A stretch of DNA of 64,000 nt, from positions 2,368,001 to 2,432,000 of the forward strand of contig CBDFGR010000003.1 in assembly GCA_965247115.1 (NCBI GenBank), given 5' to 3'. This DNA is from Myxococcota bacterium. GTDB lineage: Bacteria; Myxococcota_A; UBA9160; SZUA-336. The first letter of the stretch is position 1. Every line of letters starts with the position of its first letter. Positions 2,510 to 14,765 of this stretch are shown one piece after another. The position numbers and the translations under genes were made by a program. The notes beneath the pieces are model-generated. The model saw nothing but the letters and a program-made list of their open reading frames with translations, was not told the DNA's origin and did no database searches.

Positions 2510-4192
2510 GTGCCCATGGAAACAAAGCATTCCCAGGGCTGCACCGGCAACTTCGCCGCGCTGATCGAGCGCCGCGCCGCCGAGAATCCGGCGCGAACCG
2601 CACTCACCATCCCCTACTCCGACCGGGCCGGGTGGCAGGAGCGCGAGCTCAGCTTCGGCGAGCTCTGGCGGCGGGTCCAGATCGCGCGCAGGGGACTCTC
2701 GAGAGCGGGGCTCGGACGCGGCAAAAGGGTGATCCTGCTGAGCCGCCTCAGCCCCGACTTCTACGTGGTGACGATCGCCATGGTGGCCTCGGGTCTAGCG
2801 GTCACCCTGATCAATACAGGAATGGGGCTCCGACGCGCGCTCCAGGCGGCTCGAACCGCCCGGCCGAGCGCCGCGATCGCCGAGCCACGGTTCCGATGGC
2901 TCGCCCAGCTGCTGCCCCCGCTGAGCTCGCTGCCGTGCCACCGGCTTCGCGACATCGTGGACTGCCCGGACGGTCCGCTGGCGGACACGCCCGTGGCTTG
3001 CCAGCCCGATGCCGAAGCACTCATCACGTTCACGTCCGGCACCACTGGGCGGCCCAAGGGCGCCAACCGCACGCACGGGTTGCTGATCGCCCAGCACAAA
3101 GCGCTGGCTCGTGCCTTCCCCTTCGAGCCCGGCGACGTGGACATGCCGGCCTTCCCCGTGCTCGCGCTACACAACCTCTGCTGCGGCGTCTCCACCGTGT
3201 TCCCGGCCATGCATCTCACTCGGCCCGGCGAGGTCGAGGTCGAGGCCGACCGCGTCCTGGAGCAGATCGAGCGCCACCGAGCCGCCCGGCTCAGTGGGGC
3301 GCCCGCCTACATGAAACGACTCCGCGAGGCTGCACGGCGCGAGCCGGCCCGGGTTCGCAGCGTGCGCTCGATCGGTATTGGCGGCGCGCCGGTGACGCCC
3401 GGGCTCTGCCGCGCTGTTCGTGAGGCCTTCCCACTCGCGGCGGCCCACGTGATCTACGGATCGACAGAGGCGGAGCCGATCGCAAGCGTCCCCGTGTCCC
3501 AGGCGACAGGCGCTCCCAGCCATGCCGAGGGGCTGCTCGTCGGGAGGCCCGTCTATCCCGCCCGCGTCGCAGTCGTCTCACTGCCGAGTCCACCGCCCCG
3601 CCTGGACGAACGCGGTCTCGGCCCTTACGAGACACCCATCGGTGTCTCCGGCGAGATCGTCGTCAGCGGACCCCACGTGGTCCGCAGCTACGTGAGCGAT
3701 CCAGCCGCGGACCAGGCGCACAAGCTCTTCGCCGCCTCGGGCGAGGTGTGGCACCGGACCGGCGACACCGGGTATCGAGATCCCGGCGGGAGCCTGTGGC
3801 TCACGGGACGCGTGCCCGACCTCGTGCGGCGAGACGGAGAGGAAGTCCATCCCCTCGGGCTCGAGGCCGAGCTCTGCGCGCTGCCCGGTGTGCGCCGCGC
3901 CGCGCTCATCGCCCACTCGCGGGCACCGCAAGGGGAAGTCGTGATCGAGACTGAGTCCGGAGCCGACCGGCGATCCGTCCGCGCAGCCGCACGGACACTC
4001 CTTGCAGCGCAGGGGCTGGACACGCTTCGCGTTGGATTCACGGGCTCCGTGCCGGTCGACCGTCGGCACCAGAGCAAGATCGATCGCGTGGCCCTGCGGC
4101 AGCGCCGCTCGCGACGACTCGACCTCGCCCTGCGTACGTGGATCCGCACCACCTACCAGATCGATCGCCGGAGGTTTCGCCATGGAGCATAG
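2510..4192 (+). CDS. AMP-dependent acyl-CoA synthetase/ligase (OleC-like ANL family)
   Basis: TFTSGTTGRPKG AMP-binding motif, YGSTEAEP, WHRTGDTGY, and C-terminal PVDRRHQSKIDR similar to OleC-type ligases. Start could be ATG 2516. Confidence 0.88.
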   Translation: MPMETKHSQGCTGNFAALIERRAAENPARTALTIPYSDRAGWQERELSFGELWRRVQIARRGLSRAGLGRGKRVILLSRLSPDFYVVTIAMVASGLAVTLINTGMGLRRALQAARTARPSAAIAEPRFRWLAQLLPPLSSLPCHRLRDIVDCPDGPLADTPVACQPDAEALITFTSGTTGRPKGANRTHGLLIAQHKALARAFPFEPGDVDMPAFPVLALHNLCCGVSTVFPAMHLTRPGEVEVEADRVLEQIERHRAARLSGAPAYMKRLREAARREPARVRSVRSIGIGGAPVTPGLCRAVREAFPLAAAHVIYGSTEAEPIASVPVSQATGAPSHAEGLLVGRPVYPARVAVVSLPSPPPRLDERGLGPYETPIGVSGEIVVSGPHVVRSYVSDPAADQAHKLFAASGEVWHRTGDTGYRDPGGSLWLTGRVPDLVRRDGEEVHPLGLEAELCALPGVRRAALIAHSRAPQGEVVIETESGADRRSVRAAARTLLAAQGLDTLRVGFTGSVPVDRRHQSKIDRVALRQRRSRRLDLALRTWIRTTYQIDRRRFRHGA

Positions 4193-5321
4193 AGAGCCCG
4201 CACTTCGCCCGAGCGAGCTCACGGGACATCTGTCCGCGGATCGCGTCGCGTACAGCTGCTCCTGGGAAGACGACGAGCTGCTCCGACGCGGCCTCGACAT
4301 CGGCCCGCACGACGACGTGCTCGCGATCTGCAGCGCCGGAGATGTTCCGCTCGCACTGCTCCTGGCGGGCGCCCGCTCGGTCACGGCCGTCGATTTGAAT
4401 CCCGCTCAAGTGGCCCTGCTCGAGCTCAAGATTGCGGGAATCCGCGCCCTCGATCACGAGGAGTTCACGCGCTTCGTAGGCGGCCTCCCGAGCCGAGCTC
4501 GCGGGTCTCTCTACCAGACGGTACGTCAGCACCTCTCACTCGAGGCGCGGAAGTTCTGGGACTCTCGCGCGCACGAGATCGAGCGTGGCGTCGTGCACAT
4601 CGGGCGGCTCGAGCGCTACTTCGAGGAGTTTCGCTCGCACCTGGCCGAGGTCTGGCCCGGGGATCTCCTCGCGCGGATGCTCGTCTGCAGGTCCGTGCGG
4701 GACCAAGCACAGCTCGTTCTGCGAGAAGGACTCACGCCGGCCTTCGAGGAGCTGACCGGCTGGTACTTCGGCGCGAAGATGCTAGCCGAGCGCGGGCGAA
4801 GCCACGCCCAGCTCCGCTACGTCAAACGCAGCGACGTGGGCCAGTGCTTCGGGGCGCGCCTGAATGATGCACTCACGCGTCACTCCGTCCGCACCAACCC
4901 GTTCCTGCGCTTCTTTCTCACGGGCGGCTTCGGAAGTCTGTCCGGCGGCCCGACGTACCTGCGCCCTGCGTCGTACTCGCTACTCCGCTCTCGCCTCGAT
5001 CGACTCCGAGTACGCAGGGCCGAGCTGGAGAAGGTCCTGAGCAGCGGCGACGCCGGAACGTTCAGCAGGGCTCACCTCTCCGACGTGTTCGAGTACATGA
5101 GCCCCGCGGCCAGCGCGAGCATGTTCGCTCGACTCGGGCAGGTGCTCCGACCGGGCGGTCGGATCGCGTACTGGGATCTTCTCGTACCGCGACCGGTACC
5201 CCCGCATCTGAGCACCAGCCTGACCCCCCTTTCCCGACTCTCCCACGAACTCCACCAGCGGGATCGCGTCTGGTTCTACGGCGCGTTCCACCTGTACGAG
5301 GTGAATCACCATGAGCACTGA
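4182..5321 (+). CDS. DUF3419/BtaA-like SAM-dependent (3-amino-3-carboxypropyl) transferase
   Basis: ATG 4182 with GGAGG RBS. YSCSWED, ICSAGD, AVDLNPAQ..LLELK, GRLERYF, LSDVFEYM and DRVWFYG are characteristic of BtaA/DUF3419. Confidence 0.85.
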   Translation: MEHREPALRPSELTGHLSADRVAYSCSWEDDELLRRGLDIGPHDDVLAICSAGDVPLALLLAGARSVTAVDLNPAQVALLELKIAGIRALDHEEFTRFVGGLPSRARGSLYQTVRQHLSLEARKFWDSRAHEIERGVVHIGRLERYFEEFRSHLAEVWPGDLLARMLVCRSVRDQAQLVLREGLTPAFEELTGWYFGAKMLAERGRSHAQLRYVKRSDVGQCFGARLNDALTRHSVRTNPFLRFFLTGGFGSLSGGPTYLRPASYSLLRSRLDRLRVRRAELEKVLSSGDAGTFSRAHLSDVFEYMSPAASASMFARLGQVLRPGGRIAYWDLLVPRPVPPHLSTSLTPLSRLSHELHQRDRVWFYGAFHLYEVNHHEH

Positions 5322-13638: not shown

Positions 13639-14765
13639 ACACGTACTGCGTGAGGGAGTCCGATGGACTGCGAGGCCTCCCCGAGGGCTTCCTGGGGCTT
13701 CCCGTCGAGCTGTACCGCGGCGACCCACTCTGGATCCCCGAGGCGACGGACGAGGTCGCCCGCTCCTTCTCGTCGGCGAACCCCTGGTTCGACCGCGGTA
13801 TGGCGCGCTGCTTCTGCGTCCCTGGGAAGGCACGCGTTGCGGTCTTCGTAACCCCGGGCCAGCAGGTCGACGGCGCCGATGCCGCGTACTTCGGGTTCTG
13901 GGAAAGCACCGGAGATACCGAGGCGGACCGCAGGCTGTTCGCCCGCGCGACGGAGTGGGCACGGAGGCAGGGCGCCCAGGCCATCTACGGCCCGATCAAC
14001 TTCACGACCTACGCTAACTACCGCTTGCGCCTCGGGCGCAACGACTGCGAGGCTCCGTTTCCCGGTGAGCCCTACAACCCGCCCGAGTACCCGCGCATCC
14101 TCGAGCGCAACGGGTTCCGGCTCCGACATCGCTATCTGACCTTCTCCACTCCCCGGGCCGAGATCGATCCTCTCGTTCGGATCGGCAGCGCCGGGATCGC
14201 GCGTCTCGAAGCCGACGGCTATCGATTCGAGAGACTCTACCCGCAGCGCTGGCTGAGCGAGCTCCCGGAGCTACACGCCCTGGCCAACGCCGCCTTCAAG
14301 TTGAACTTTGGCTACTCGCCGCTGAGCTATGCGGAGTTCCGCGAGATGTGCGGCGAGCGCCTAGTGCGCCTCGCGTGTCTGCGATCCAGCACCATCGCCC
14401 GCACGCCAGATGGCCGCCCCGTGGGCTTCTGCCTGGTGTACCCGCACTATGGCTCCCTCGTCGCTCAGGGCGCCGGAGCGAGCCGTCGCAGCGTGAGCGA
14501 GCTCCAGTACTCGAGGGACCTGGCCGCGCTCCGGGTCCGAGGGCTGCGGGTGGCGATCGCCAAGACAGCGGGCGTGCACCCCGAGCACCGTCTCCAGGGC
14601 CTGTACTACGCCATGGCGGCCCGCGCCATCTTGTGGGGCGATGACGTGTACGACTTCTGGCACGCGGCCATCATCCGAGCTGACAACCCGAGTCGGAAGT
14701 TCGCTTCTCACCTCTCCTCGAGCGCCGTCCGCGAGTACGGCCTCTACGGTCGCACGCTGAACTAG
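13635..14765 (+). CDS. GNAT-like (YghO-like) acyltransferase
   Basis: YFGFWE, YGPINFTT, GEPYNPPEY and GVHPEHRLQG (acetyl-CoA binding-like). ATGA overlap with the upstream gene. Confidence 0.65.
   Translation: MNTYCVRESDGLRGLPEGFLGLPVELYRGDPLWIPEATDEVARSFSSANPWFDRGMARCFCVPGKARVAVFVTPGQQVDGADAAYFGFWESTGDTEADRRLFARATEWARRQGAQAIYGPINFTTYANYRLRLGRNDCEAPFPGEPYNPPEYPRILERNGFRLRHRYLTFSTPRAEIDPLVRIGSAGIARLEADGYRFERLYPQRWLSELPELHALANAAFKLNFGYSPLSYAEFREMCGERLVRLACLRSSTIARTPDGRPVGFCLVYPHYGSLVAQGAGASRRSVSELQYSRDLAALRVRGLRVAIAKTAGVHPEHRLQGLYYAMAARAILWGDDVYDFWHAAIIRADNPSRKFASHLSSSAVREYGLYGRTLN

Follow-up and report, generated by a model that had tools for sequence, protein, structure and literature searches.

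Several known systems phosphorylate a hydroxymethyl or prenol group twice and release the diphosphate when the group is coupled to its partner, namely phytol salvage (VTE5/VTE6, then VTE2/ChlG) and the methanofuran (MfnE/MfnF), thiamin (ThiD/ThiE) and folate (HPPK/DHPS) systems. To our knowledge, none of them starts from an acid by way of a reductase resembling 3-hydroxy-3-methylglutaryl-CoA (HMG-CoA) reductase (HMGR), or uses the enzyme families considered in this article. Here we describe a seven-gene operon in a 64,000-nucleotide stretch of a Myxococcota bacterium genome (assembly GCA_965247115.1, contig CBDFGR010000003.1, positions 2,368,001 to 2,432,000 of the forward strand), which is referred to as the window and whose first letter is position 1 in all coordinates below. 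We conclude that the operon likely represents an uncharacterised, widespread pathway built of known enzyme families. Judging from the families, and with a probability that we put a little below one half (roughly 45%), the pathway would lead from an acid through a CoA thioester, an alcohol and a phosphate to a (di)phosphate, followed by UbiA-type coupling, tailoring and export. The seven genes are as follows.

2510 to 4192, plus strand: ANL-superfamily acid-activating ligase, likely an acyl-CoA ligase (PF00501, 160 bits)
4182 to 5321, plus strand: DUF3419 (BtaA-like) protein of a short subfamily of ~370 aa (PF11899, 216 bits, E 1.2e-63)
5311 to 7756, plus strand: class-I-HMGR-like reductase fused to an APH/EcKL-fold kinase, frameshifted (PF00368, PF02958)
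7738 to 10020, plus strand: RND exporter of the HAE3/MMPL type (PF03176, TIGR00921)
10020 to 10949, plus strand: UbiA-fold membrane transferase, 309 aa (PRK05951 below cut-off, family profile, structure model)
10957 to 13638, plus strand: phosphoenolpyruvate (PEP)-utilising His-swivel phosphotransferase with PPDK_N and PEP-utilizers domains, referred to as the dikinase (PF01326, PF00391)
13635 to 14765, plus strand: tandem-GNAT acyltransferase-like protein, 376 aa (predicted fold)

The successive junctions are overlaps of 11, 11, 19 and 1–4 nt, then a gap of 7 nt and an overlap of 4 nt. No terminator-like site was found on the plus strand within the operon, and a scan for sigma-70 promoters gave 0 sites versus 0.8 expected by chance, with a model that may not suit this organism. 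The junction overlaps uphold the operon structure, and the seven-gene block is a real, translationally coupled operon. An initial annotation, made from the sequence alone, had described seven co-oriented genes with overlapping or near-abutting stops and starts and had assigned each to a family. All seven genes are present on the plus strand and all seven identities stand, including those of the UbiA-like and GNAT-like proteins, which Pfam misses and whose labels are borne out by a profile match and by predicted folds.

These genes are grouped far more often than chance would allow, as their recurrence in other genomes shows. Loci with a relative of the fusion gene were collected, 86 in all, 6 from reference genomes and the best 80 of 290 confirmed metagenome stretches, and were searched with the window proteins; we use the term well flanked for the 20 unrelated loci in which the fusion gene has 6 kb or more of sequence to either side. 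The dikinase gene accompanies the fusion gene in all 20 well-flanked loci, the ANL ligase in 19, the tandem GNAT in 16, the UbiA-like gene in 15, the RND exporter in 11 and DUF3419 in 5. All seven genes occur together in two loci (L002 and L016), as in the window, and among 14 loci from genomes of the window's phylum the ligase and DUF3419 are each found in 10. Unsupervised clustering of 617 open reading frames (ORFs) from 83 loci returned the same six partner families and no further family in more than 10 loci; the minor neighbour families comprise a MacB-type permease together with its ATPase, a GGDEF protein (7 loci) and a LolA-like protein. Gene order varies, with two layouts predominant. 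One layout reads RND, UbiA, reductase/kinase, dikinase, GNAT, ligase, and a second, found in the window's phylum, has the dikinase and UbiA-like genes divergent from a ligase–DUF3419–RND–reductase/kinase series. In the 37 loci that span 12 kb or more, the GNAT occurs without DUF3419 in 23 and DUF3419 without the GNAT in 9; both genes are present in 2 loci and neither in 3, the counts of absence being upper bounds owing to short flanks.

The fusion protein itself is widespread. Of 8000 scored candidates, 2114 reach E ≤ 0.001, many relatives are 47–53% identical to it, and the 120 homologues listed all match PF00368 and nearly all match a kinase family too. The family extends over several phyla; going by source names, it is found in Myxococcota, Pseudomonas/Pseudomonadales, Vicinamibacterales and Bradymonadaceae, as well as on a Streptomyces plasmid. 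Two homologues (P0008 and P0053) are triple fusions of DUF3419, reductase and kinase. The initial annotation named lack of joint conservation in other genomes among the outcomes that would refute it; the refutation fails, since dozens of unrelated loci have these families in the vicinity of the fusion gene. It could be supposed that the genes are neighbours only by chance, through mobile-DNA traffic and with no pathway behind them, as the operon lies between a prophage remnant and an insertion sequence (IS), with IS110 and integrase fragments nearby. We consider this supposition next to negligible. It is contradicted by the synteny counts, with the same families found around the fusion gene in varied orders; the identities of 30–50% among these loci argue against one recent mobile element; and both the existing gene fusions and the overlapping start and stop codons speak against it.

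The reductase domain has an archaeal class I HMGR (6hr7) as its best solved relative, with E 6.7e-76 when the homologue from L002 is used as the query and ~40% identity. Alignment of 26 family members to 6hr7 and AtHMG1 shows little or no variation in the motifs TTEG, DKK and GQD and at the C-terminal His; these hold the catalytic Glu, Lys, Asp and His, which we take to be residues 559, 691, 767 and 866 of the human enzyme. The equivalent of Arg590 (R29) is likewise invariant. Two other positions differ. Ser684 is described as a cis-loop residue in contact with HMG, and Lys735 as forming a salt bridge with the terminal carboxylate of HMG (PMC9500038). Of the 26 family members, 24 have Glu and 2 have Asp at the position equivalent to Ser684; at that of Lys735, Gln is found in 12, Arg in 6, His in 4, Phe in 1 and Lys in 1 (2 others).

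The genome, which is 98% complete, has no other PF00368 match than the operon reductase and no match to HMG_CoA_synt_C, and it contains IspH of the methylerythritol phosphate (MEP) route. Mevalonate-pathway families, including the decarboxylase and the isomerase, are not found among the conserved neighbour families either. The remark in the initial annotation that the window lacks other mevalonate-pathway genes is supported at the genome level. Because the Ser684 and Lys735 positions are changed, no HMG-CoA synthase is matched and IspH is present, the reductase appears to reduce some CoA thioester different from HMG-CoA, or at any rate not to supply isoprenoid precursors. The alternative is a non-canonical mevalonate route, in which a true HMGR would be followed by the fused kinase and the dikinase as replacements for mevalonate kinase and phosphomevalonate kinase. 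The ~40% identity to an archaeal enzyme, the complete set of catalytic residues and the invariant Arg590 equivalent would suit such a route, yet the same substitutions and genome content stand against it and it would leave the ligase, the GNAT, the UbiA-like enzyme and the RND pump unexplained; we regard it as very improbable.

The kinase half of the fusion contains the motifs HNDFNPRN and DWE, and matches no choline/ethanolamine kinase family in Pfam and none above chance level in NCBIfam. Public names of the fusion protein are limited to "phosphotransferase", "hypothetical protein" and "HMG-CoA reductase". In the ligase, the motifs SGTTGRPK and TGD and the C-terminal Lys of SKIDR are present; the NCBIfam model PRK09274 matches with E 5.4e-116, under its cut-off, and CoA is the presumed acceptor. 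The dikinase matches PF01326 (208 bits) and PF00391 (86 bits) and no other Pfam family at E ≤ 0.001, in keeping with PEP-utilising phosphotransferases that lack a PEP/pyruvate domain (rifamycin phosphotransferase type). Its best NCBIfam model is PRK06241.2-2 (836 bits, cut-off 883), the RedH, PigC and rifamycin phosphotransferase models match at 300–320 bits, and the phospho-His swivel motif STLSHAAIVARE is present, with the His motif SHAAIVARE. The RND protein has 15 partly overlapping hydrophobic segments according to a crude hydropathy scan. It matches PF03176 (MMPL) with 55.6 bits and also PF02460 and PF12349 (Patched, Sterol-sensing), and among NCBIfam models TIGR00921 (HAE3) with 172 bits and E 1.5e-50, in addition to the MMPL and HpnN models.

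Pfam, including PF01040, gives no match to the 309-aa UbiA-like protein even at E 5, and the NCBIfam model PRK05951 ("prenyltransferase") matches with E 2.6e-42 and 145 bits versus a cut-off of 239. Single-sequence searches of solved structures with this protein, and with the GNAT-like and DUF3419 proteins, returned nothing significant. A profile of 34 family members, compared with solved structures, identifies digeranylgeranylglyceryl phosphate (DGGGP) synthase (DGGGPS; 6m31, E 7.4e-10) and chlorophyll synthase (1e-3), both of which alkylate oxygen nucleophiles. The atlas neighbours of the protein have PF01040 in 42–49% of their members. The structure model (pLDDT 93.7, pTM 0.90) has an all-helical UbiA fold, and Foldseek ranks 1–13 are DGGGPS, the archaeal UbiA homologues ApUbiA and AfUbiA, and UBIAD1, with TM 0.52–0.69 for ranks 1–12; the top folds are 7bpu/6m31 (TM 0.60–0.68), 4od4 and 4tq4, and the identity to DGGGPS is 13–14%. 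The Asp-rich motifs of UbiA enzymes are NDxxDxxxD and DxxxD. In this family the first takes the form of an invariant DEHKDYxLD (D74, E75, D78, D82), and in the region of the second DxxxD is not there; E201, R204 and K205 are invariant in that region and E212 is kept in at least 90% of members.

In the pathway that we propose, the ANL ligase would convert a carboxylic acid to its CoA thioester, the HMGR-like domain would carry out the four-electron reduction of the thioester to a primary alcohol, and the fused APH-fold kinase would convert the alcohol to a phosphate. A second phosphoryl transfer, through the histidine of the PEP-utilising His-swivel enzyme, would follow. The diphosphate so formed would serve the DGGGPS-like UbiA-fold enzyme as alkyl donor for the O-alkylation (ether-type or similar) of a partner molecule in the membrane. 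Tailoring would fall to the BtaA-like protein, the tandem GNAT or both, and export to the RND pump. The catalytic motifs of reductase, kinase, dikinase and ligase look intact, which is in favour of this proposal. Export agrees with the HAE3/MMPL/HpnN type of the RND protein and with the LolA-like and MacB-type ABC genes at some loci. A weak lead for the second phosphoryl transfer is provided by two dikinase-less contexts, the Streptomyces plasmid and a locus in genome G317, where a weak Thymidylate_kin-like P-loop protein is encoded beside the fusion gene; such neighbours would fit phosphorylation of a phosphate monoester. UbiA-family enzymes normally require allylic or otherwise stabilised diphosphates, so that a saturated fatty acid is a less likely starting compound than a 2-enoyl, isoprenoid or aryl acid.

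The likeness to DGGGP synthase also allows the roles at the UbiA step to be reversed. After the same early steps, the phospho-alcohol made by the cluster would be the acceptor, as geranylgeranylglyceryl phosphate is for DGGGP synthase, and an isoprenoid diphosphate from the host's MEP route would be the donor. A prenylated ether phospholipid resembling those of archaea would result, and the dikinase would phosphorylate elsewhere. DGGGP synthase is the closest solved relative both by profile and by fold, and its acceptor is a phosphorylated alcohol. IspH in the genome means that isoprenoid diphosphates are on hand, and no non-allylic diphosphate donor would be required. The reversed arrangement leaves the tightest-linked partner, the dikinase (20/20), without a clear role, however, and does not explain the Thymidylate_kin-like neighbours in dikinase-less contexts, and the 13–14% identity to DGGGPS is too low for substrate specificity to be transferred. 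We view it as the main rival to our proposal and as rather unlikely.

The DUF3419 protein is 31–48% identical to members of its own separate subfamily of 350–390 aa and ~27% identical (E 1e-13 to 1e-23) to proteins of 402–417 aa, of which P0231 and P0234 are named BtaA by NCBI/UniRef; protein names from JGI are automatic. NCBIfam gives chance-level matches only, and no BtaB-type methyltransferase was found among the seven operon genes or the conserved neighbour families, the rest of the genome lying outside this search. The initial annotation had given the protein an aminocarboxypropyl-transferring role like that of BtaA. DUF3419, with just 5 of the 20 well-flanked loci, does not belong to the core of the set, and at ~27% identity both the orthology to BtaA and the transfer are no more than putative. 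The GNAT-like protein matches no Pfam family (even at E 5) and no NCBIfam model. Its structure model (pLDDT 88.9) has two GNAT domains and 229 PDB matches at E ≤ 0.001, led by the tandem GNATs 7q3a (MAB_4324, E 7.9e-13), 2wpx (clavulanate-pathway protein) and the mycothiol synthase MshD (1ozp/2c27); GNAT is also the atlas lead for the 376-aa protein.

Both proteins figure in another reading, in which the operon makes a head group. An amino acid, supplied by DUF3419 or another source, would be activated and reduced to an amino alcohol, whose phosphorylation would yield a substituted phosphoethanolamine-like head group; this would be N-acylated by the GNAT and then joined to a lipid or a polyprenyl phosphate carrier. 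The acidic residue at the Ser684 position (E 24/26, D 2/26) could bind an amine, and the DUF3419–reductase–kinase fusions, together with the order of DUF3419 followed by reductase, fit DUF3419 acting next to the reductase step. GNATs usually acylate amines, and the motifs HNDxxxxN and DWE resemble those of choline/ethanolamine kinases. On the other hand, the kinase has no family-level match to choline/ethanolamine kinases, what the acidic residue does is guesswork, and DUF3419 is not found in most loci of the gammaproteobacterial type (23 of the 37 loci of at least 12 kb having the GNAT without it). We consider the head-group reading unlikely.

Several points weigh against the proposed acid-to-diphosphate pathway, which we nevertheless prefer. 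A saturated alkyl diphosphate would be a poor UbiA donor. The UbiA-like gene is not found in 5 of the 20 well-flanked loci and DUF3419 not in 15, so the late steps vary. The dikinase could act on another hydroxyl rather than on the phosphate. GH3-type enzymes, which provide the adenylating neighbour on the Streptomyces plasmid, make amides, not CoA thioesters. The acyl-CoA motif Q/RxxGxG/A was not found by a regular-expression search of the GNAT-like window protein; the family-invariant R319 sits in its C-terminal domain, so the protein may bind CoA. The key gene of the local copy is frameshifted, and this copy probably does nothing. Finally, the substrate, the intermediates and the product are hypothetical, as is every step beyond gene identity. 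The initial annotation had arrived at a similar scheme of activation, reduction, phosphorylation, UbiA coupling and export, of which the gene identities hold; its order of steps and its amino-ether or phospho-lipid product are conjectural in the same way.

A broader statement would be that bacteria have a widespread pathway, apart from the MEP and mevalonate routes and so far undescribed, that turns acids into diphosphate alkyl donors by means of the HMGR-like reductase–kinase fusion and the dikinase, and that a DGGGPS-like enzyme makes from these donors a new class of exported ether (amino)lipids, under cyclic di-GMP control (PilZ) in some lineages. We advance this broader statement as a speculation that is rather unlikely to hold in full. 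Three homologues of the fusion protein (P0066, P0091 and P0103) have an N-terminal PilZ domain, and a GGDEF neighbour is present at loci such as L028. The combination hints at cyclic di-GMP control of the pathway in some lineages.

Two divergent contexts of the fusion family differ from the common gene set. In the plasmid collection, the sole full-length fusion lies on the Streptomyces sp. NBC_01435 plasmid NZ_CP109493.1 (L095, 854594–884645) and is 43% identical to the window protein; dikinase, UbiA-like, GNAT and DUF3419 genes are not found in its surroundings. Its neighbours, which resemble those of natural-product clusters, are a GH3-family adenylating enzyme, a Thymidylate_kin-like protein, an APS kinase, a PAPS reductase, a large polyketide synthase and an adenylation–thiolation protein similar to nonribosomal peptide synthetases. 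The other context (L113, G317:C115) has a divergent reductase fusion of 1061 aa, 37% identical, followed by an NTP_transf_5 nucleotidyltransferase, a Thymidylate_kin-like protein and an FGGY kinase.

The copy of the fusion gene in the window is interrupted by a frameshift. The reductase–kinase begins at ATG 5311 in frame 1 (MSTEIIPGRGEYTEQ...), is readable to ~5436, and from ~5438 runs on in frame 2 (...EALRGNVENFIG...). A one-base insertion near 5436–5438 thus cuts off the first ~42 codons from the remainder, and three homologues align over the junction without a gap once one base is removed from the CCGGGAA run at this place. The 727-aa ORF at 5573–7756 matches PF00368 with 264.6 bits (above the curated cut-off) and PF02958 with 26.1 bits, and in the open frame the PF00368 match rises to 329.7 bits over profile positions 25–368. 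The first start codon in frame 2 is GTG 5573, downstream of the catalytic Glu of TTEG, so that a restart there would yield a dead reductase. Most homologues have an N-terminal extension of 100–150 residues that the window gene lacks.

Three contigs from three runs (X1–X3, depth 4–8) match the window exactly across the frameshift site; all come from one sample, possibly the source of the genome itself, and are not independent of the window genome. Each is ~12.36 kb long, covers ~2431–14790 of the window and ends at the two flanking repeats. Since they were assembled per run and have the same sequence, they argue against an assembly artefact. A homopolymer error of long reads was considered as well and rejected, X1–X3 being identical and breaking at repeats as short-word graph assemblies do. 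The frameshift noted in the initial annotation is accordingly real in the data, as indicated by the two frames, the homologue alignment and these contigs. The local reductase–kinase is probably inactive and the pathway dead in this genome; with its frameshift and its location in mobile DNA, the window copy probably does not give rise to a functioning pathway.

The surroundings of the operon are mobile DNA, with the following features at its boundaries.

1 to 2460, minus strand: left boundary, truncated lambda-like prophage tail segment (Pfam FNIII-A_GpJ and NLPC_P60; copies in the genome)
3 to 1919, minus strand: GpJ-like ORF (Pfam FNIII-A_GpJ)
1871 to 2530, minus strand: NlpC/P60 ORF (Pfam NLPC_P60)
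14759 to 15810, plus strand: right boundary, IS481-family element with its transposase at 14855 to 15793 (LZ_Tnp_IS481, rve, rve_3)
15835 to 16437, minus strand: CDP-alcohol phosphatidyltransferase, converging on the operon

Positions 1–2460 have two further copies in the same genome at 89–90% identity (G000:C3:2584722-2587181 and C3:777192-779657), a similarity that does not extend past 2460, 50 nt short of the ligase gene. One of the copies (L117) continues into a tape measure protein, chaperone, tail tube, capsid E, decoration D and S49 protease; as this copy extends into an apparently complete lambda-like structural module, the window copy is a truncated prophage. On the other side, the IS481 element starts at the stop codon of the GNAT gene, with ends at 14755–14762 and 15793–15826. 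Ten full-length copies of it, 97–98% identical, are present in the same-genus genome G002, and no second copy was found in the window genome among the scored matches (40 of 391 candidates scored). Between these boundaries, the DNA at 2461–14754 has no match in two same-genus genomes except for one of 43 bases in G001.

At the protein level, the reductase half of the fusion has no match in 40 relatives ranging from genus to class, where all matches are to the kinase half (best E 2.3e-10). In a sample of 401 genomes drawn evenly from the phylum, 16, this one among them, have a match that covers both halves, and in another 2 the match is truncated at a contig end; within the window's own family, matches to both halves number 0 of 13 in the phylum sample and 0 of 24 in the search of relatives. 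The operon therefore constitutes a strain-specific island of 12.3 kb set within mobile DNA, for which horizontal acquisition is the simplest explanation. GC content is 0.65–0.72 over the window, 0.66–0.72 in the island and 0.65–0.70 nearby, and with this likeness to the surroundings composition is no evidence on transfer.

The CDP-alcohol transferase was indeed found to converge on the operon just past the IS element, as the initial annotation had said. Its inclusion in the system fails, with a match in 1 of the 86 loci (29% identity) and in 0 of the 14 phylum loci. An adjacent regulator of the SARP/AAA/TPR type was tried as a part of the system and rejected, having 0 matches in the 86 loci and 0 in the 14. 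With counts of 1/86 and 0/86, neither gene is part of the system.

Further features of the region were recorded in passing. Fragments of an IS110-type transposase and of a tyrosine integrase (the latter matched from profile position 27) are located at 20237–20575 and 21723–22742 and add to the mobile-DNA remains beside the operon. A repeat of ~88 bases at 19768–19855 has dozens of copies, 80–91% identical, in the window genome and in G002. The copies lie on either strand, some of them closely paired, and the repeat resembles a miniature inverted-repeat transposable element or a repetitive extragenic palindromic (REP)-like element. An ORF of 2097 aa on the minus strand at 24642–30935 has SpvB, TcdB_toxin_midN and RHS-repeat domains and resembles Tc/Rhs-type toxins (Pfam only). 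A second RHS-repeat ORF, of 1220 aa, lies 6–10 kb upstream of the window (L116, 2254–5916, minus strand; Pfam only). A short ORF at 43607–43969, minus strand, matches the UGSC family PF24696.

A literature search found no description of the gene set, in line with the statement in the initial annotation that it has no characterised product; subscription journals and bioRxiv supplements were outside its reach, so that a description could exist. Titles and abstracts on DUF3419 concern algae, fungi or an unrelated cyanobacterial cluster only. The Lipocone paper mentions another gene neighbourhood, one in which HMG-CoA reductase occurs with a GHMP kinase. The automatic label "HMG-CoA reductase" on the fusion protein would wrongly imply a mevalonate pathway. 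If the proposed pathway is true, it would be a new route from an acid to an activated alkyl donor, in which bacteria put an archaeal-lipid-synthase-like enzyme to a new use, and would bear on bacterial ether lipids and environmental lipid biomarkers. In this particular genome, the operon copy is probably a horizontally acquired island that is already decaying.

Among known systems, the core of the mevalonate pathway shares with the operon the logic of CoA thioester, primary alcohol, phosphate and diphosphate, and a class I HMGR homologue that retains the catalytic residues. It differs in that the operon kinase has the APH/EcKL fold and is fused rather than being of the GHMP family, the second phosphotransferase is a PEP-utilising His-swivel enzyme, HMG-CoA synthase, decarboxylase and isomerase are lacking, the host uses the MEP route, and the Ser684 and Lys735 positions are different. 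DGGGP synthase (6m31/7bpu) is the best solved relative of the UbiA-like enzyme by profile and fold and, like it, an all-helical membrane protein whose first motif is Asp-rich. The operon enzyme has only 13–14% identity to it, no PF01040 match and the motifs DExxDxxxD and then ExxRK...E, and the annotated neighbour clusters include neither a geranylgeranylglyceryl phosphate synthase nor a glycerol-1-phosphate dehydrogenase family. The BtaA/BtaB system for the betaine lipid diacylglyceryltrimethylhomoserine has the DUF3419/PF11899 domain in common with the operon (216 bits). In contrast to the BtaA-named proteins of 402–417 aa, the operon protein has ~370 aa and belongs to a separate subfamily at ~27% identity; it has no BtaB in the operon, and its partners are the reductase–kinase, to which it is sometimes fused, and an acid ligase. 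Rifamycin phosphotransferase, PigC, RedH and phenylphosphate synthase have the same ATP-grasp PPDK_N domain and C-terminal phospho-His swivel domain as the dikinase, whose best NCBIfam match is an uncharacterised "PEP synthase" subfamily (PRK06241.2-2, just under its cut-off) instead. The phytol, methanofuran, thiamin and folate systems, lastly, offer an analogy for the succession of kinase, dikinase and coupling enzyme that we infer for the operon.

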